NCBI GenBank assembly: GCA_022710685.1
Contig: JAKLGM010000002.1
Location: 1,701-65,700 of the forward strand
Length of the DNA: 64,000 nt
Source of the DNA: Patescibacteria group bacterium
Lineage (GTDB): Bacteria > Patescibacteriota > Patescibacteriia > Patescibacteriales > UBA12465
Direction of reading: 5' to 3'
Made by a program: the position numbers and the translations under genes. Positions 4,674 to 36,941 of the stretch are shown in pieces. Under the pieces are notes generated by a model. The model was not told the DNA's origin and did not search any database. It saw only the letters and a list, made by a program, of their open reading frames with translations. Each line of letters opens with the position of its first letter. The first letter of the stretch is position 1.

Positions 4674-6524
4674 TTAGGTAGCCATATTGATGATGCGGCC
4701 GTCAGGCAGCTCGAAGCTTCTAATCTTGAATTCTAGGTTGGGCAGTTCTTTCAGTTGTTCTTCCAGATTTTCCAGGCGGTCTTTTACGACTTGGCGCACA
4801 TCGCCTCGAATAGATGGATTATTTAATTGTTCATTGGCCCGATCAATATCAGCTTGGATCTTTTCTAATTTCTTTTCATAGAGCTTGTCAAAATTGTCCT
4901 TCATTTCATTTAGGGAAATCTTGATAATCTGTTGGTTTTCATCATAGCCAAGATTGAAATAGACCTTGACGCCCTTCATTTGGGAATCAATTAATAGCTT
5001 GTCCATTTCCGCTTTAGTGGTTTGGATAGCTTCGTCAGTGTTAATGAGCAGTAATTTGGCTTCCAGGGCCTTATTGCCGGTCATATCATAGCTAGCTAAA
5101 GCTTCATTAGCGGCCAAGATCGATCTTTCGTGGGAGCTGCCGCCGGTCGGGATATTTTTCAGGGCTTCGCCGGCTTCATAGAAGCTATTGGTGGAAGTGA
5201 CTGCATCCAGGTTATCGGAAAATGTTGCGACTTTGATATTGGCGCTACCGTTTCCGGTTTTGAGCTGCTCGGCCATATAGTCGCGAGAATCATGCATTGA
5301 CGGGCTGTTATCAAAGATGATGATAGTTTGGTCGTAGCTGGAAATCAAATCAATGGTTATCTGGGTCATTTCTATTTTGTTTTCAATCTCTAGCTGCGGC
5401 TCTAGTATTGGCATCGGTTTTAATTCTTCACCGGCCTTAGCCATTAGGTTGACCTTGATATAGCGGCAAGAGCGTAAAAGATCATTATATTTTGTCAGGT
5501 TGGTTTTTTTCAGTTCGGCGACTTCTTTCTCGGTATAATTCACGCCGGTATCCGGATTGACCAAGTCGGTGATGTGGGTAACGCCGTCTTCCGGTACGCC
5601 ATGCTTAAATTCTTTGCCTTGCAATTGTTTAATTTGTTCCGGTGTCAGATCGGAGCTCGAAAAGTCATGGTTGTTTAATTCCGCCAAAAGAATTTCTTCA
5701 GCGGCGGCAATTCGGGCTTCAGTCAATTCTAAGTTGCCGCCTTTCCAGGTGCTGGTGGGCCGTTCATCGCTGGAGCCGTAAATTTTGAAGTCTAGTTTCA
5801 TGACTTCGTTAAAGTTCTGGGAGTTAACTTTGTTCAAAAAGGCGCTAAAATCAGCTTTGATTTCATTGGCATCAGCCTCAGATATCAAAGCCATATCAGT
5901 CTCGTAGCTATTAGTCAGATCCATGACTGCGATATTTTCAATATCTCCTGGTTCAAAGTCTTCTCCGGTTAAGGTGTAGGTATTACCGTCTGGACCGCCA
6001 TCCGGTTTGGTGCCATGGCCGCCGTCGAATTTTTCAGTCTTAGTATTGGTATCGCCCAAATCTTTGGCCGGGGCTTCGGCCGCTTGGCTATGAGGAGCGA
6101 ATTTCAAGAAAAGAAGCAAGGTGACAAAAGCAATCTTAGTGGCGGGACGGCGCAAAAAGTTTTTTAGCTTGCTGCCGCTATATGATTCGTTCAATTCGCC
6201 GTTTAGGACTTTGGAAATGTTGTCGTGCAGGCTTTTAACATCAGCTTCCTTGATATTTTCCCCGCCGTTAATGTATTCCATGAAGTCGCCGACATTCATT
6301 TTCATGATGTTTTCAAAGACGCCTTCGTTTATTTCTAAGCCCTGAGATTCCATTTCAGTCATGGCTTTCTTCAAGCCGTCGAGGCGGGCGGAAAAATCCT
6401 GCGTCTCTTCTTCAACGCGGTTTGTTTTAGTCGGAACTTTCTTCTCTATCGGAGTTTCTTTCCGATTTGTCTCAATCGTCTTGTCGTGGTTTTTATGTTC
6501 TCGGCGGAAATTAAAGATACCCAT
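4674..6524 (-). CDS. Membrane-anchored protein with an OmpA/MotB-like segment and a vWA-like (DxSxS MIDAS) C-terminal domain
   Basis: 616-aa ORF with one TM helix (IAFVTLLLFLKFAP). IYGSSDERPTSTWKGGNLELTEARIAAAEEIL resembles the OmpA-C peptidoglycan-binding motif. IIIFDNSPSMHD is a DxSxS MIDAS-like motif. Confidence 0.5.
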   Translation of the reverse strand: MGIFNFRREHKNHDKTIETNRKETPIEKKVPTKTNRVEEETQDFSARLDGLKKAMTEMESQGLEINEGVFENIMKMNVGDFMEYINGGENIKEADVKSLHDNISKVLNGELNESYSGSKLKNFLRRPATKIAFVTLLLFLKFAPHSQAAEAPAKDLGDTNTKTEKFDGGHGTKPDGGPDGNTYTLTGEDFEPGDIENIAVMDLTNSYETDMALISEADANEIKADFSAFLNKVNSQNFNEVMKLDFKIYGSSDERPTSTWKGGNLELTEARIAAAEEILLAELNNHDFSSSDLTPEQIKQLQGKEFKHGVPEDGVTHITDLVNPDTGVNYTEKEVAELKKTNLTKYNDLLRSCRYIKVNLMAKAGEELKPMPILEPQLEIENKIEMTQITIDLISSYDQTIIIFDNSPSMHDSRDYMAEQLKTGNGSANIKVATFSDNLDAVTSTNSFYEAGEALKNIPTGGSSHERSILAANEALASYDMTGNKALEAKLLLINTDEAIQTTKAEMDKLLIDSQMKGVKVYFNLGYDENQQIIKISLNEMKDNFDKLYEKKLEKIQADIDRANEQLNNPSIRGDVRQVVKDRLENLEEQLKELPNLEFKIRSFELPDGRIINMAT

Positions 6525-29006: not shown

Positions 29007-29036
29007 TTGTAATATTTTTTTAAGCGGGTGTATAAT
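29007..29036 (+). promoter_or_regulatory. Candidate promoter of the first tandem pilin gene
   Basis: ttgtaa, 18-nt spacer, tataat (29031-29036). The flanks resemble the promoter at 30438-30466, but there is no G tract. Confidence 0.45.
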
Positions 29037-30231: not shown

Positions 30232-30261
30232 ACACCGCAGATTGTTCTGCGGTGTTTTTTG
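30232..30261 (+). terminator. Intrinsic terminator after the first tandem pilin gene
   Basis: acaccgcag-attgtt-ctgcggtgt followed by tttttt. Confidence 0.8.
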
Positions 30262-30437
30262 TTAGTAGTCCTCCGAGAGGAGATATCTAAACATTTAAGC
30301 GAAATTATTGAGGAAATTAAGATCTGGGCGGTGTTTTTGACACTGATAAATTAATATTACTTTTTATAACTAGAAAAGTCAATTAACTTAAAGTCTAAAT
30401 TTTTTGTTTTAAAACCCAGTTCAAATCTGCCCCAATA

Positions 30438-30466
30438 TTGCCGGGGGGGGGGGGATATGGTATAAT
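30438..30466 (+). promoter_or_regulatory. Promoter of the DGR target gene, with a G12 homopolymer in the spacer
   Basis: ttgccg (30438-30443), 17-nt spacer, tataat (30461-30466), with TGg extended -10 at 30458-30460. The spacer is dominated by the G run at 30443-30454. Confidence 0.65.
30443..30454. repeat. Homopolymeric G12 tract
   Basis: The sequence ccgggggggggggggat contains 12 consecutive G. Confidence 0.95.
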
Positions 30467-30505: not shown

Positions 30506-31609
30506 ATGAAATCTAAAAAAGCCTTCACCCTCATCGAGCTCTTAGTAGTAATAGCCATCATTGGTATCTTAGCAACTATTTCCGTTTTAGCTCTCAATAA
30601 TGCTAGGGCTAAATCCCGTGACGCCAAAAGAGTGGGGAATATGAAACAAGTCCAAACAGCCCTAGAGCTATTCTTTAACGACAAACAAAGATATCCCACC
30701 GCTGAAGAATGGAACACTGGAAAAATATACTCCACTACCACCAATTCCACCTCGACCTATATGCAAATAATACCAGTTGCTCCCACCCCTAATGATGGTA
30801 ATTGTACCACCGATCAAAACGCTATTAACTATATCCCTACCTCAGACGGAGCATCCTATTCTATCTCTTTCTGTCTGGGAGGTACTACCGGAACCCTAGC
30901 TCCCGGACCAAAATGTTTGACTCCTAGTGGAATTGTGGATATGGATTGTAGCGCTGGTAGTCCACCAGCTTTTGCTTGTGGTATTAGCCAAGTTACAATT
31001 TCTTCTATTGCCGGCCACACTTGTAATACTGGCGCCCCAGACTATGACACTTGTACCTATGACACTGTTGATATTAACGGTCAATGCTGGATGAAGCAAA
31101 ATATGAATATCGGTACTTATGTCACTGGTGCCACTACCCAAACCAATGACTCTAATTTACAAAAATATTGTTACGGCGATAATACCGGTAATTGTCTAAC
31201 TGACGGCGGTCTCTATCAATGGGATGAAGCTATGCAATATTCCGTCACTGAATTAGCTCAAGGCGTTTGCCCCGATGGTTGGCATATCCCCACTGACGCT
31301 GAACAAAATACGCTTGACCAATCATTAAATGATACTACTTGTAATGCTAATAGAATCGGGGATTGGGATTGTGCTAACGCCGGCACTAAATTACAAACTG
31401 GAGGTACTTCCGGATTTGAGGGTCTCTTAGCCGGCTACCGCGATCCCGGTGGGTTGTTCTACCTTCAGGGGACGTACGCGCTCTTCTGGTCGTCATCGAT
31501 TAGCGGGTCTGATGCTTGGGATCGGTACTTGCTCACTGGCCTCGCGACCGTTTTCCGCAATCATAGTGACCGAGCCCACGGCTTTTCTGTGCGTTGTCTT
31601 CAGGACTAA
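30506..31609 (+). CDS. DGR target (variable) protein: type IV pilin-like N-terminus plus a FISUMP/C-type-lectin-like head carrying the VR
   Basis: The ATG at 30506 gives MKSKKAFTLIELLVVIAIIG. FISUMP blocks: INGQCWMKQNMNIG, GGLYQWDEAM, CPDGWHIPTDAEQ, GFEGLLAGYR, FWSSS, FSVRCLQD. The last 177 nt are the VR. Confidence 0.9.
   Translation: MKSKKAFTLIELLVVIAIIGILATISVLALNNARAKSRDAKRVGNMKQVQTALELFFNDKQRYPTAEEWNTGKIYSTTTNSTSTYMQIIPVAPTPNDGNCTTDQNAINYIPTSDGASYSISFCLGGTTGTLAPGPKCLTPSGIVDMDCSAGSPPAFACGISQVTISSIAGHTCNTGAPDYDTCTYDTVDINGQCWMKQNMNIGTYVTGATTQTNDSNLQKYCYGDNTGNCLTDGGLYQWDEAMQYSVTELAQGVCPDGWHIPTDAEQNTLDQSLNDTTCNANRIGDWDCANAGTKLQTGGTSGFEGLLAGYRDPGGLFYLQGTYALFWSSSISGSDAWDRYLLTGLATVFRNHSDRAHGFSVRCLQD
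31430..31606 (+). repeat. DGR variable region (VR)
   Basis: Gap-free 177-nt alignment to 32191-32367. By hand count there are 36 mismatches, 25 of them at TR adenines. The 3' 29 nt are identical. Confidence 0.88.
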
Positions 31610-31612
31610 TTC

Positions 31613-31639
31613 GACTATTTTGACTATTTTGACTATTTT
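31613..31639 (+). repeat. 3 x 9-bp tandem repeat (gactatttt)
   Basis: Three perfect tandem copies begin 4 nt after the target-gene stop codon. Confidence 0.9.
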
Positions 31640-31640
31640 T

Positions 31641-31662
31641 CCGCCTCGTGTCAGCGAGGCGG
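31641..31662 (+). promoter_or_regulatory. GC-rich hairpin downstream of the VR (candidate DGR target-recognition hairpin and/or terminator)
   Basis: ccgcctcg-tgtcag-cgaggcgg: an 8-bp GC-rich stem with a 6-nt loop, 35 nt after the VR end. Confidence 0.55.
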
Positions 31663-31680
31663 AATTAATTAATTTTCCTT

Positions 31681-32025: not shown

Positions 32026-32190
32026 TGGGCCAGAGTCGTCATCGGTTACGGCCATGGCGAGTGCGCCTCACTAGTCCAATAATCCACTAAATTTTTTTAA
32101 ATTTAGTAATTGACGGAGCAACCTGTCATTTTGCTGATTTTTTAATAAAATATCAAATCAGCCGAAGAGTTTAGCGATTATTATAAAAGA

Positions 32191-32367
32191 GCCGGCAACC
32201 GCAATACCAATGGGTCGTTCAACAATCAGGGAACGAACGCGAACTTCTGGTCATCTACCATTAGTGGACCGGACGCCTGGAATCGGAACTTGAACACCGG
32301 CTATGCGACCGTTAACCGCAATCATAATGACCAAGCCAACGGCTTTTCTGTGCGTTGTCTTCAGGAC
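32191..32367 (+). repeat. DGR template repeat (TR)
   Basis: Non-coding copy of the VR. Read in the VR frame, it has 14 AAY codons among 59 (AGNRNTNGSFNNQGTNANFW...NRNLNTGYATVNRNHNDQAN). It lies 55 nt upstream of the RT start. Confidence 0.88.
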
Positions 32368-32422
32368 TGGTCAAAAGGAGCCATATAACAATGGCTTCTT
32401 TTATTTTACTAAAATATTTTTT

Positions 32423-33634
32423 ATGTCCGATAAACTTCTTGTTGACCTCTTTCAAGCCTATTACGACGCTCGGCGTTACAAGAGAAATACGATGAGCGCT
32501 TTAAATTTTGAAATTAATTTAGAGCATAATATATTTGAATTATATAAAGAGATAAAAAATGGTACTTATCAAATTAGTCCCAGTCTGGCCTTTATAATTT
32601 TCGATCCGGTTCAGCGGGAAATTATCGCTTCTCCCTTTCGGAATCGAGTCGTTCATCATCTCGTTTTTAATTATATTAACCCTATTCTGGAAAAGCTCTT
32701 TATTTCAGACAGTTATAGCTGTCGCCAGGGCAAGGATATCAGTTACGGAGTTAAGCGAGTCGCCCATTTTGTCCGGTCTAGTTCACAAAATTATCGGACC
32801 GATAATTATATTCTTAAACTAGATATTTCCGGCTATTTTATGAGTATTAATCAAAAGATATTATATGATAAGGTAGAGAATTATTTATTAAGACATAACA
32901 CTAATTATCCTTTCGATTTAAAATTAATTTTAGCTCTATTAAAGAAAATTGTTTTTCACGATTATATCAAGGATTGCGTTATTAGAGGCGGGCACACTAA
33001 TTGGCAAAAATTACCCCGCAATAAAAGCTTATTTTTTACCCCTCCGGGTTTTGGTTTGCCGATAGGTAATTTAACCTCGCAATTATTTAGCAATGTTTAC
33101 CTTAATGATTTTGATCATTATATTAAACGGAATTTGAAGTTTAAATATTATGGCCGTTATGTTGATGATTTAATAATCATTGACGGCAGTAAAGAGAGCC
33201 TCCAAATAGCTATGGCCAAAATTGCGGAATATTTATCAGCAAATCTGAATCTAAAAATTCACCCCAGAAAAATATATTTACAGCCCTACACTAAGGACGT
33301 TAATTTTTTGGGCGGAATTATTAAGCCTTATAGAGTTTATGTCCGTCATCGGACTAAAGCTAGTTTTTATCGCTCAGTGGCTAAGTCCAATAATATTTTA
33401 AAAAATATAGATGTAGAAAAGAAAGCGCTAAGAAAAATTTTATCCAGTTTTAATTCCTATTTAGGATCATTGGGGCAATATAAAACCTATAATTTACGGC
33501 GTAAAATATTGGATAACAAACTATCTCCGGCCTTTTCGCGTTATTATAGATTGGGAAGTGGCAAGTTTAGATATAAGAAAATTATTTTGAAGAGATATTT
33601 TAAACTTATCCCCAGCTCCACCAAGCACGATTAA
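32423..33634 (+). CDS. DGR-type reverse transcriptase
   Basis: The ATG at 32423 gives MSDKLLVDLFQAYYDARRYKR. Motifs include GLPIGNLTSQLFSNVYLNDFD (DGR-specific [ILV]GxxxSQ), YGRYVDDLIII (YxDD), and FLGGIIKP. The track start at 32303 is an out-of-frame readthrough of the TR. Confidence 0.9.
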   Translation: MSDKLLVDLFQAYYDARRYKRNTMSALNFEINLEHNIFELYKEIKNGTYQISPSLAFIIFDPVQREIIASPFRNRVVHHLVFNYINPILEKLFISDSYSCRQGKDISYGVKRVAHFVRSSSQNYRTDNYILKLDISGYFMSINQKILYDKVENYLLRHNTNYPFDLKLILALLKKIVFHDYIKDCVIRGGHTNWQKLPRNKSLFFTPPGFGLPIGNLTSQLFSNVYLNDFDHYIKRNLKFKYYGRYVDDLIIIDGSKESLQIAMAKIAEYLSANLNLKIHPRKIYLQPYTKDVNFLGGIIKPYRVYVRHRTKASFYRSVAKSNNILKNIDVEKKALRKILSSFNSYLGSLGQYKTYNLRRKILDNKLSPAFSRYYRLGSGKFRYKKIILKRYFKLIPSSTKHD

Positions 33635-34030
33635 ATTATCTCGTCAAAATCTCAAAAATCACCCCCAAAATCAGCCCTTAACCTATCCCCGAATTTATGC
33701 TATGATACATTTAGACTTAATCAATAAAATTATATAATCTCGGAACCCATTGTTGAACGGATGTCGCTCGCATGAAACGCAAAATAAAAATAAAACTCAT
33801 AAAATAATATCCCCTGTAAATTAGCAAAGTCTTTCTTTGCCAATTGAAACTAATTAACCAGCATTTGTCCGTGCTCGGTTTTTTTTGTTTTGGCAAAGAC
33901 TATTAATTTCGTCGTCGCCTGTTTAGTTAGCGAAACAGGTCAATGATTCCTTTAATGTAAACAAGCGTATTAGTTTGTTTTAGCCTATTGGTGGCACTTG
34001 CCCCGTCGCTAGTGGCTAGTTCTGTTCTTT

Positions 34031-34140
34031 AATCTCTCATTTTTGACCGTCCCCCCAAGCATTGTTTTTTATTTTTTTTTCGGCGAGGCTTGTCCGCTCG
34101 CCGAAAAAATAAAAACAAGCTGGGGGCGGTAAATGAGATT
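34031..34140. repeat. Long imperfect palindrome centred on a GC hairpin (bidirectional terminator and/or replication origin)
   Basis: aatctc(tc)attt..accg.cccccaagc.ttgtttttt.atttttttttcggcgag-gcttgtccg-ctcgccgaaaaaataaaaacaagctgggggcggtaaatgagatt. The core stem is cggcgag/ctcgccg. Confidence 0.7.
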
Positions 34141-34217
34141 TTAAATAAAAGTAGTGTTTGTTCGCCGTGTGCCTCTATTAGACTTGACTATAGGCACACT
34201 TAACGCCGTTATAACTT

Positions 34218-35006
34218 ATGGAAATTAAACCACGAGTTTATCGGCAGAAGCTGATAGAGTCGGGTGATTATGTAGAAATATATGATTATGAGAACTTCAT
34301 TAAAATTAATCAAAAGAGAAGACATGGAAGAATTAAAAAGGAAAAAATTAAGCAACCACATGAAGATGATAACAGTGAATTGAGTAAAGTATTAAAAAGT
34401 GAATTTTCCTATAGGCGAAGTCGGTCAAATATTGTTAGACTGGTAAATTCTAACCCCGATTTAAGAGTATTTATCACGCTAACCTTTGATAGCCATAAAT
34501 TCGGGGATAAGCCGTTTACTGATTTTAAAGAATGTAATTTGATATTTTCTAATTTCATTAAACGACTAAAACGGAAATATCCCGATTTAAAATATCTGGC
34601 CGTGCCCGAATTTCAAAGCGACTATTATCACCGCACCAATATCCGAAAAGAATTTGGCGGTAATATTCATTATCACTTATTATCTAATTTGCCGTTTATT
34701 GAGAACACCGCTCTCGAGAAAATCTGGGGCTACGGATTCATTAAAATCAATAATATCCGACAGGTGTCTGCTGTCGGTCCGTATGTCGCTAAATACATCG
34801 GCAAAGAATTATTTGACGGTCGCTTAAATGGAAAGAAAAAACTATTTTATTCGAGGACTCTTAATCGCTCTAAAATTATTATTACCTACTCAAAAATAAA
34901 AGAATATCTTAATAACTTAAAATCACCTCTCAAGCTTTTGCACGAGACAACTTACAAGTCCGAATATCTCGGCAGAGCTCGCTATCGGCTCTATAAAAAT
35001 AGTTAG
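34218..35006 (+). CDS. Rolling-circle replication initiator, HUH superfamily, Y2 type (phiX174 gpA-like motifs)
   Basis: Motif I is VFITLTF, motif II is IHYHLLSN (HUH), and motif III is GPYVAKYIGK. The YxxxY pair compares with phiX174 A protein YVAKYVNK. Confidence 0.65.
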   Translation: MEIKPRVYRQKLIESGDYVEIYDYENFIKINQKRRHGRIKKEKIKQPHEDDNSELSKVLKSEFSYRRSRSNIVRLVNSNPDLRVFITLTFDSHKFGDKPFTDFKECNLIFSNFIKRLKRKYPDLKYLAVPEFQSDYYHRTNIRKEFGGNIHYHLLSNLPFIENTALEKIWGYGFIKINNIRQVSAVGPYVAKYIGKELFDGRLNGKKKLFYSRTLNRSKIIITYSKIKEYLNNLKSPLKLLHETTYKSEYLGRARYRLYKNS

Positions 35007-35053
35007 CAATATCGTCTTTGATTCTTTTAGGTAAAACATAAGCCCTCTAACCA

Positions 35054-35215
35054 ATGATTACTATCGAGGCCCTTAAAAAATTAATAGTAAGTCGTGGTCG
35101 ACAGTATTCCGATGACGAATTGGAGACAGTTAGACGCGACTTATACCAACTTGCTCATCTCTCGTTTAAGTATTATCTCAATCAACAAAATATACTAACA
35201 AAATCAATAAAATAA
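35054..35215 (+). CDS. Small hypothetical ORF (53 aa) between Rep and the recombinase
   Basis: ATG at 35054 giving MITIEALKKLIVSRGRQYSDDELETVRRDLYQLAHLSFKYYLNQQNILTKSIK. It is below the track threshold, helical-looking, and sits where an excisionase/RDF might lie. The function is pure speculation. Confidence 0.25.
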   Translation: MITIEALKKLIVSRGRQYSDDELETVRRDLYQLAHLSFKYYLNQQNILTKSIK

Positions 35216-35330
35216 ATGAAAAATATTGTAAAAATTAAAATATATGTTATTATCCTTAATGGACACAATTAAATCAAAGTATATCAACCATTCTCAAATC
35301 ACAATGACGGCAGATGAGTCGTTTTGATAT

Positions 35331-35396
35331 AAAGAGAGCAGTGGCTGTTTCAGTTATACTTTGTATAATTGTGTCCAACAGTTCACTGCTCTCTTT
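35331..35396. repeat. 13-bp perfect inverted repeat flanking a TATAAT box upstream of the recombinase gene
   Basis: aaagagagcagtg (35331-35343) pairs with cactgctctcttt (35384-35396). tataat lies at 35364-35369 inside the loop. A second inverted repeat pairs ggacacaatt (35261-35270) with aattgtgtcc (35367-35376). Confidence 0.7.
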
Positions 35397-35417
35397 TTAT
35401 TATTAACTTTTAACCCT

Positions 35418-36941
35418 ATGCAAAAAGGAATAATCTATTACCGAGTTTCAACCGAAGACCAAGCTCAAACTGGCGTTAGCTTGGAACAGCAGAAAAACGC
35501 CTGTCTTGATTATGCTCAAAAAAATGATATTGAAATATTAAAATTATTTCACGATGACGGAGTGTCCGCTAAAACCACTAAAAGGGCGGGGCTCCAAGAG
35601 TTGCTGGCGTATTGTAAAAAGAATCATAAAGAAGTTGATTGTCTGATAGTTTATAAAATTGATAGGTTGTCGAGAAATGTTAAAGACTACGCCACGCTAT
35701 TAATGGCACTAGGCGAATTTAACATTAAATTTATTTCCACCACTGAGACCGTCAATGAAACATCAAGCGGAAAACTTATCGGTACGATTATGGCCTCGTT
35801 CGCTCAATTTGATAATGATGTTAGGAGCGAAAGAGTGTCGGTCTGTATGCTCGAAAAGGCTAAGCAGGGAATCTGGTGCTTCAAAGCCCCATTCGGTTAT
35901 CTAAACGCTCGAGACGGGCAAAATAGAGCCATTATAACCGTGGATAAGGAGCGTATGCCAGTTATTAAAATGGCCTTTGAAAAGTTTGCCACGGGATTAT
36001 ATAAAATGGAGGAAATTAGAAAAATGATGATTAAAGCTGGTTTTAAAACATGGCGAGATAAAGAGCTAAATATTCAAAGTTTATCCCGTTTATTATCGGA
36101 AAAGTTCTATATCGGCATTATGACGATTAAAGGCCAAGAATATCAAGGCACGCATGAATTATTTATTGATGAAAATACATATTACAAATGCCAAAAATTA
36201 ATCCGCACTTCTAAGCGAGGTGATAATATTGCTTTTAAACGCACTAACGAAATGTTTCCGTTAAGAAATTTTATTTTATGTCCTCATTGTCATCGCCCTT
36301 TTACCGCCTACTTATCTAAAAATCGCCAAGGCAAATATTATCCGTATTATAAATGCTATAACAAGGACTGTCACAATTTTAAATCTGTCGCCAAAGATAG
36401 GCTGGAAAATCAGTTCAGCAATTATATCAAAGAAATATCGCCTGATCCTGATTTTGCTAAAGCCTATCAAAAAATTGTGGTTGAGGAATGGGAAAAGGGA
36501 CTGCAAAATTATAAGGGTAGTATTGTTAATCTCAAGAATGAATTAGATAAACTAGAAATAGAGAAGTCTAAATTAATTGAAATGAAGAAAAAGGATTTGC
36601 TTGACGATGAGGACTTTAAAGAAGAAATGTATAAAGTAAAGATTAAAATAGCCGAAAAGCAGTCTATCCCAGCCGAGAGTATAGCTGATAATTTTGATGT
36701 TAAAAAAGAATCCAAAAAAGTTTTTGATATTATCCCCGACCTCAATAAATTCTATAATGGTCTCGGCTATTACGACAAGCTGAAATTACAGGGTTTGATT
36801 TTTCCTGAAAAGGTCTATTTTGATTTTTCCGAAAGTCGAACCCCTAAATTGTCGCTAATATTACAAACCAAAAGAGAGCTGGCAACTGCCAGCTCCCCGA
36901 AAGTAGCCTCTAGGGGAATCGAACCCCTGTTACATGGTTGA
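35418..36941 (+). CDS. Large serine recombinase (resolvase domain + recombinase domain + zinc ribbon + coiled coil)
   Basis: The ATG at 35418 gives MQKGIIYYRVSTEDQ, with the catalytic Ser in YRVST. Other features are VYKIDRLSRN, the zinc ribbon CPHCHRPF...YYKCYNKDC, and a Lys/Glu-rich coiled coil. The last 38 nt overlap tRNA-Glu. Confidence 0.88.
   Translation: MQKGIIYYRVSTEDQAQTGVSLEQQKNACLDYAQKNDIEILKLFHDDGVSAKTTKRAGLQELLAYCKKNHKEVDCLIVYKIDRLSRNVKDYATLLMALGEFNIKFISTTETVNETSSGKLIGTIMASFAQFDNDVRSERVSVCMLEKAKQGIWCFKAPFGYLNARDGQNRAIITVDKERMPVIKMAFEKFATGLYKMEEIRKMMIKAGFKTWRDKELNIQSLSRLLSEKFYIGIMTIKGQEYQGTHELFIDENTYYKCQKLIRTSKRGDNIAFKRTNEMFPLRNFILCPHCHRPFTAYLSKNRQGKYYPYYKCYNKDCHNFKSVAKDRLENQFSNYIKEISPDPDFAKAYQKIVVEEWEKGLQNYKGSIVNLKNELDKLEIEKSKLIEMKKKDLLDDEDFKEEMYKVKIKIAEKQSIPAESIADNFDVKKESKKVFDIIPDLNKFYNGLGYYDKLKLQGLIFPEKVYFDFSESRTPKLSLILQTKRELATASSPKVASRGIEPLLHG

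Follow-up and report, generated by a model that had tools for sequence, protein, structure and literature searches.

A conserved, slippage-prone poly-G tract as a candidate expression dial at the promoter of a Patescibacteria DGR target gene

The most likely reading of the promoter described here, considered probable, is that a conserved and slippage-prone poly-G run acts as an expression dial on the gene targeted by a DGR. In the window, i.e., the whole 64-kb stretch of DNA that was analysed, a run of 12 G would form most of the spacer of a sigma-70-type promoter, TTGCCG-17-TGG-TATAAT, ahead of the DGR target gene. Slipped-strand mispairing at replication would add or remove G residues, and each gain or loss would move the TTG of the −35 element relative to the extended −10 element, in distance and in helical phase. 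The altered spacing would then turn transcription of the pilin-like Fib_succ_major surface protein up or down. At the level of the population, the predicted outcome is a set of heritable and reversible sub-populations that express the protein strongly, weakly or not at all, which would constitute a second, faster layer of variation on top of a ligand-binding tip diversified by the retroelement. That TTGCCG/TATAAT is an active promoter, that the tract changes length frequently within a population, and that such changes affect expression are what we infer from the sequence. In model bacteria, an extended −10 element makes a promoter less dependent on the −35 element and on spacing. The extended −10 element may thus lessen the spacing dependence here, which makes graded "volume" control as likely as strict ON/OFF switching, and the effect of a length change on expression may be modest or graded.

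Promoter architecture in the window

The layout proposed in the initial annotation, i.e., TTGCCG, a 17-nt spacer and TGG-TATAAT ahead of an ATG at 30506, matches the sequence base for base (Table 1), and its description of a single uninterrupted G12 spanning the end of the −35 hexamer and 11 of the 17 spacer bases proved exact. The first G of the tract is the last base of the hexamer. A consensus scan, the consensus of which may not be the host's own, independently recovered TTGCCG-17-TATAAT, which matches at 10 of 12 positions and has a TG ahead of the second hexamer. The candidate promoter is situated about 40 nt 5′ of the ATG, and its distance (40–48 nt) agrees with that of other TGnTATAAT sites in the window. 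Eight such sites occur on the two strands, four of them 31–48 nt 5′ of a gene start, and the same motif is found at most pilin-paralog promoters of related MAGs. The G12 tract is the only G/C run longer than 6 in the 64-kb window, for which about 0.0015 such runs are expected from the base composition. [quoted passage not shown] A G-quadruplex role for the tract was rejected by reasoning only, since a single run of G8–G12 cannot fold a standard intramolecular four-run quadruplex and relatives with G8–G9 retain the feature.

Table 1. Coordinates of the promoter, the DGR cassette and the neighbouring features in the window
Feature	Position	Strand	Evidence
Paralog promoter TTGTAA-18-TATAAT, without G tract	29007–29036	+	Sequence read, consensus scan, alignment
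Untargeted pilin-like paralog, 376 aa	29075–30205	+	Pfam; ~73% nucleotide identity to target gene
Paralog terminator	30233–30260	+	Sequence read
Conserved non-coding block ahead of promoter, beginning just 3′ of paralog terminator	30262–30437	+	Alignment
−35-like hexamer TTGCCG	30438–30443	+	Sequence read
Uninterrupted G12 tract	30443–30454	+	Sequence read
Spacer between TTGCCG and TATAAT, 17 nt	30444–30460		Sequence read
Extended −10 TGGTATAAT (TGg 30458–30460, tataat 30461–30466)	30458–30466	+	Sequence read
DGR target gene, 367-aa pilin-like protein	30506–31609	+	Pfam PF07963, E = 2e-8; PF09603, E = 1.2e-29
Variable repeat (VR), 3′ end of target gene	31429–31607	+	80% identical to TR
Three copies of GACTATTTT, then perfect 9-bp GC-rich hairpin (31640–31663), between target stop and Avd	31613–31663	+	Sequence read
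Avd accessory protein, 114 aa	31681–32025	+	Pfam bAvd PF22296, E = 1.5e-11
RT-7-like RNA motif directly 5′ of TR	32029–32188	+	Rfam RF03028, 50.3 bits, E = 6e-10 (sub-threshold; gathering score 116.8)
Template repeat (TR), 179 nt	32190–32368	+	TR/VR comparison
DGR reverse transcriptase (RT), 435 aa (JGI gene call)	32327–33634	+	Pfam RVT_1, E = 2e-14

The promoter of the neighbouring, untargeted pilin-like paralog offers an internal comparison. As the initial annotation had stated, it keeps the flanking aatatt frame and a similar leader but has a T-rich spacer without a G tract, and the sequence, the consensus scan and the alignment agree on this point. The non-coding block that precedes the target promoter is opened by a small palindrome, TCCTCCGAGAGGAG, and is common to the window, to locus L007 and to both pilin genes of L008; it was found in L159 as well. 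The ORFs in this block are only 21–31 aa long and none of them is supported, and an Rfam search of it returned no convincing match. A minus-strand TTGACT-17-TAATAT (30382–30354) lies inside the block. A C-rich box, CCCACTATTG, is conserved 5′ of the tract in several lineages. The sequence TCCTCCGAGRGGA was considered as a widespread box and rejected, as its matches among the fetched loci are confined to the window's own contig (L001, L002) and L007.

The DGR cassette

The identification of the gene 3′ of the promoter as a DGR target was borne out by the presence of a VR, a TR, an Avd and an RT. The TR and VR of the window differ at 36 positions, 25 of which are at TR adenines, and therefore the DGR reading is correct; the cassette combines an RT next to a TR/VR pair, adenine-biased differences and an Avd-type accessory protein. 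The remaining 11 mismatches, all at non-adenine positions, form one block (VR 31490–31515, TR 32250–32275), which suggests either a recombinant cassette or a VR that was not fully re-homed after a change in the TR. Within this block, the window VR resembles the TR and VR of L007, and the window TR resembles that of L008. In L007, 24 of the 26 TR/VR differences are at adenines. The VRs of the window and L007 differ at 26 positions, in cassettes that are 95% identical, and the VR is identical in five assemblies from different samples.

The target protein begins with MKSKKAFTLIELLVVIAIIG, a prepilin cleavage/methylation motif (N_methyl, PF07963) followed by a hydrophobic helix, and its C-terminal domain is Fib_succ_major (PF09603). 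Shortly before the Avd start, the hairpin TCCGCCTCG-TGTCAG-CGAGGCGGA could be a DGR post-VR recognition hairpin, a terminator or both. The sequence TAATTCGACTATTT, located 3′ of the VR, was seen again in the distant loci L098, L134 and L139. The RT-7-like motif spans precisely the interval from Avd to TR and might correspond to the structured 5′ portion of the DGR RNA. Avd homologs with E ≤ 1e-20 number 769. A phage origin of this DGR clade was considered and rejected: IMG/VR gave one distant match, so the clade appears to be mainly cellular.

The locus L007 differs from the window in its surroundings. Its cassette is 95% nucleotide-identical to that of the window, its downstream DNA only 78%, and its upstream DNA is unrelated. 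In addition, a comparison of L007 6203–6217 with window 32727–36379 shows that about 3.65 kb is missing in L007, i.e., most of the RT, a REP_ORF2-G2P replication-protein gene (34218–35006) and the 5′ part of a serine recombinase gene (35361–36941). These differences are a hint that the cassette moved horizontally and that the DGR of L007 is dead. The L007 MAG (CAZXEE010000001.1) bears the label "uncultured Gammaproteobacteria bacterium", possibly through an error in taxonomy assignment, since its cassette and paralog family match those of Falkowbacteria/Patescibacteria MAGs.

Distribution of the tract among relatives

A protein-guided scan of GTDB species representatives yielded 45 loci, and sampling was extended with contigs fetched for Avd homologs and a metagenome scan with Avd alignment. 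MAGs labelled as Candidatus Falkowbacteria or as other Patescibacteria are the closest relatives. Of the 13 assessable lineages, all with an Avd at least 76% identical, 12 carry the tract at the DGR-target promoter: the window, L007, L008/L079, L081, L159, L054, L071, L086, L160, L074/L087/L088, L059 and L090. In these lineages a common frame, TTG(C/T)C-Gn-(6–10 nt)-TATAAT, lies 5′ of the DGR target. The TTG stands immediately 5′ of the tract in all 17 tabulated promoters, with diverged surroundings (TTGCCG, TTGTCG, TTGCGG, TTGCCC, TTGTGG), and the TG of the extended −10 element is found in 14 of the 17. The lineage without a tract is L052/L080 (Avd 93%), in which the target begins about 60 nt after another gene and is probably transcribed as an operon with it. 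In more distant lineages the tract is sporadic (L091, G8; L121, C9; L141, G9).

The tract was proposed in the initial annotation to be specific to the DGR-targeted copy, and this specificity holds well beyond the window. None of the approximately 27 pilin-like paralog promoters without Avd in the fetched DNA has a G/C run of at least 7; the comparison with the target promoters (12/13 vs. 0/27) gives a Fisher p of 2e-9 when shared ancestry is ignored. The locus L008, the DGR part of which is 87% identical to that of the window, has two tandem pilin genes, and the tract occurs only at the second, the DGR target, as ACTATTGTC-G10. The tract is also kept ahead of targets that are not pilin-like (L075/L090, L121) and in spacers whose remaining bases have diverged. 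Since an uninterrupted run has been kept while its flanks diverged, in genomes otherwise without G/C runs, the conservation pattern points to selection on the repeat itself.

Other simple repeats and tracts were noted in the collected DNA. In a groundwater lineage (Avd 74%), L065/L089 have a T15 at positions 15–29, without poly-G, just 5′ of the target's TGGTATAAT, and the sister contig L063 has 7-nt tandem repeats (TTATAAC/TTGTAAC) in the leader at approximately 320–365; both are other kinds of simple repeat at the equivalent location. In more distant DGR loci, tracts of G9–G12 occur 3′ of the RT (L123 4522–4530, L140 3424–3433, L150 3448–3459), two of them in the common context Gn-CTTAAA(A/T)GC, and the tract of L123 sits ahead of a signal-peptide-like protein. 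A C17 run is present at L044 5608–5624, in a context unrelated to the window; this locus of a Bacteroidetes MAG encodes a Fib_succ_major protein as well. In L059, the leader of about 220 nt from the G11 promoter to the target start contains a long perfect inverted repeat, ATTTCTGGTGTCAGGCACC ... GGTGCCTGACACCAGAAAT, at approximately 495–590, which may be an inserted palindromic element.

Tract length and promoter spacing

The length of the tract ranges from G8 to G12 across the lineages, with the TTG retained 5′ and TATAAT retained 6–10 nt 3′. In single loci the reading is G8 (L159), G9 (L054, L086), G10 (L081, L074), G11 (L071, L059) or G-A-G9 (L160), and L008 and L079 concur on G10. L090 reads G21 about 90–110 nt from a contig end, beside long A and T runs, and this value is probably unreliable. 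All lengths are those of the assembled consensus, and an error in consensus calling or assembly can produce a one-base difference in a homopolymer.

Whether the length is invariant across relatives had been set as a check on the initial annotation; it varies, also between nearly identical stretches of DNA. Three pairs of close relatives with the same flanks differ in this way, as in the porA/opc type of promoter. The window has G12 and L007 has G10 at the same promoter in 95%-identical cassettes, and the ~190 nt 5′ of the tract show two substitutions between them, to which the left end of the alignment adds four more differences. L087 (G9) and L088 (G10), from sibling-sample assemblies, have no mismatches and one gap over 4,088 nt. 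L086 and L160 are 97% identical, and their tracts differ by 2 nt.

The strain of the window was met in several assemblies. The JGI contig Ga0116241_10000775 is the same DNA as the window, and an identical Avd is encoded on contigs of four other samples. For up to 3.7 kb 3′ of the tract, these contigs have 100% identity to the window, and no turnover of the VR is seen among the samples. The contigs were found by identity-based look-up; an exact-DNA scan for the downstream flank of the promoter missed it, though JGI contigs carry it. L003 spans the tract cleanly as G12 and agrees with the window, which gives a consensus length of 12 for the strain. L005 and L006 start exactly at the tract, reading G12 and G13, respectively, and L004 reads G13 followed by a garbled, homopolymer-error-like copy of upstream sequence. 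At least five contigs of independent assemblies break off at the tract or only a few bases away (L005, L006, L072, L075, L077): L072 and L075 start immediately 3′ of it, and L077 starts within it. Such breaks fit either heterogeneity in length or trouble in reading through the run. Readings near contig ends (G13, G21 and G12, in L004, L006, L084 and L090) were deemed unreliable and left out of the evidence for length variation. The second check, for an assembly artefact, also came out in favour of the tract, which lies inside long contigs of independent projects with conserved sequence on both sides and is therefore not an artefact. It is a genuine feature of the DNA that interferes with assembly.

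The spacer was measured from the TTG hexamer nearest to the −10 element in 17 rows, with the window and L087/L088 lineages entered twice each. It is 15 nt in three rows, 16 nt in two, 17 nt in seven, 18 nt in two and 19 nt in two; the one remaining row, the unreliable L090, has 27 nt. Without L090 the range is thus 15–19 nt, with a mode of 17 nt. The part of the spacer contributed by the tract and the non-tract remainder are negatively correlated (r = −0.64, p = 0.02, for the 13 lineages first tabulated and with shared ancestry ignored), and 17 nt is reached by different combinations of tract and remainder (11+6, 9+8, 8+9, 7+10 and 6+11). This partial offset, together with the 17-nt mode, suggests a constraint on spacing and hence that length matters. 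A working −35 element at the TTG, with a 17-nt optimum, would be expected to leave just such an offset. If 17 nt is optimal, some of the assembled genomes would be in sub-optimal states.

Alternative explanations

The variable length could have no function even if the tract has one. The tract may serve a role independent of its length, as a site for a regulator or nucleoid protein or as a rigid GC-rich spacer, with the length differences being tolerated slippage noise; this explanation is considered unlikely. It is consistent with the extended −10 element, which may make spacing less critical, with the spacers of 15, 18 and 19 nt in assembled consensus genomes, which would show that non-optimal lengths are tolerated, and with the C-rich box, which could belong to a protein-binding site. 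However, an uninterrupted homopolymer is the most mutable encoding that a binding site could have, and the run stays uninterrupted across diverged flanks in genomes otherwise without G/C runs. The spacer offset and the 17-nt mode also imply that length matters. It is improbable that the tract is real while the assembly-to-assembly differences are sequencing or assembly errors around a true length that is stable in each lineage. The contig ends and garbling at the tract (L004, L084, L090) do show that short-read assembly has trouble there, both clean assemblies of the window strain give G12, and L008 and L079 both give G10. However, the window/L007 and L086/L160 pairs each differ by two bases with all four tracts internal to contigs, and the range of 8–12 among lineages requires many real changes on slowly diverging DNA. 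As general knowledge, Illumina consensus errors in G9–G12 runs of well-covered contigs are uncommon.

There is only a slight chance that TTGCCG/TATAAT is not the working promoter, in which case transcription would start in the upstream block or read through from the paralog, and the tract would lie in a leader or in untranscribed DNA. The conserved block of about 170 nt 5′ of the promoter would suit this explanation, and consensus matches are common in this AT-rich DNA (51 found vs. 25 expected in 8 kb). However, a strong terminator separates the paralog from the target, and a perfect extended −10 element is rare in the window, where half of its sites are just 5′ of gene starts. In addition, TTG-tract-TGnTATAAT is kept 5′ of the targets in L054, L071 and L086, all of which are without the upstream block.

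Comparison with known systems

[quoted passage not shown] A poly-C tract promoter is attributed to opc of the same species in a reference cited in PMC5084427. [quoted passage not shown] However, porA/opc belong to a host-adapted pathogen in which switching has been demonstrated, whereas the window comes from an uncultured Patescibacteria-type bacterium for which switching is proposed from sequence. The window promoter also differs in having an extended −10 element and in controlling a DGR target; the variation of PorA itself comes from ordinary mutation and recombination rather than from retrohoming. [quoted passage not shown] Unlike the window, hifA/hifB involve a dinucleotide repeat and a divergent promoter pair, without a retroelement.

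In Bordetella, the C-stretch in the fim2/fim3/fimX promoters has lengths of 7–18 that differ between strains and alter transcript abundance, and it sets the distance from the BvgA site to the −10 element, not from −35 to −10 as in the window (PMC1891110). The likeness to the window is in the homopolymer in the promoter of a gene for a pilus-type surface structure. Phage BPP-1 carries the Bordetella DGR, whose target is a phage tail-fibre gene and none of the fim genes. In Bordetella the homopolymer and the DGR thus act on different genes.

Patescibacteria are among the phyla richest in DGRs, and the type II secretion protein G-type pilin is one of the rarer VR-bearing domains (PMC11661182). 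The cassette of the window is like other CPR/Patescibacteria DGRs in the order target, Avd, TR, RT and in its adenine-specific TR/VR differences, which fall in a C-terminal Fib_succ_major domain. The conserved poly-G promoter comes on top of this in the present clade and lies outside the definition of a DGR. A literature search, with most subscription journals outside its full-text coverage, found no description of homopolymeric or phase-variable promoters at DGR targets, nor of phase variation in Patescibacteria. The proposed mechanism of the promoter is of a known kind; its occurrence in Patescibacteria and its conserved pairing with DGR targets throughout a clade are new.

Implications

A broader role, that the poly-G promoter is the only promoter for the entire target-avd-TR-RT cassette, is entertained as a tentative and rather unlikely extension. 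In the window there is no further extended −10 motif between the target gene and the RT. If this were true, slippage would switch the mutagenic retrohoming machinery along with the adhesin, and the tract would be a heritable, reversible ON/OFF switch for targeted hypermutation, conserved across a Patescibacteria clade. In L081, a second homopolymer, G13 (5827–5839), was observed about 30 nt 5′ of an RT-like ORF (start 5873, N-terminus MKVKLALNYSEIISPVNLLLAWQEF...), and poly-G promoters may also control RT genes in this group.

The motif TTG(C/T)C-G8–12-N6–10-TATAAT is a marker of target promoters in this DGR clade, and its poly-G run is offered as an explanation for the frequent assembly breaks at this site. 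DGRs are usually treated as one layer of variation, that of the binding-site sequence. If random switching of target expression came on top, these tiny, host-dependent bacteria would hedge on the display of the adhesin as well as on its binding specificity. Models of DGR function and cost would then change, e.g., with regard to the escape from phage or host recognition and the silencing of non-functional variants. Repeat-mediated phase variation, a concept that comes from host-adapted pathogens, would thereby extend to uncultured environmental Patescibacteria.
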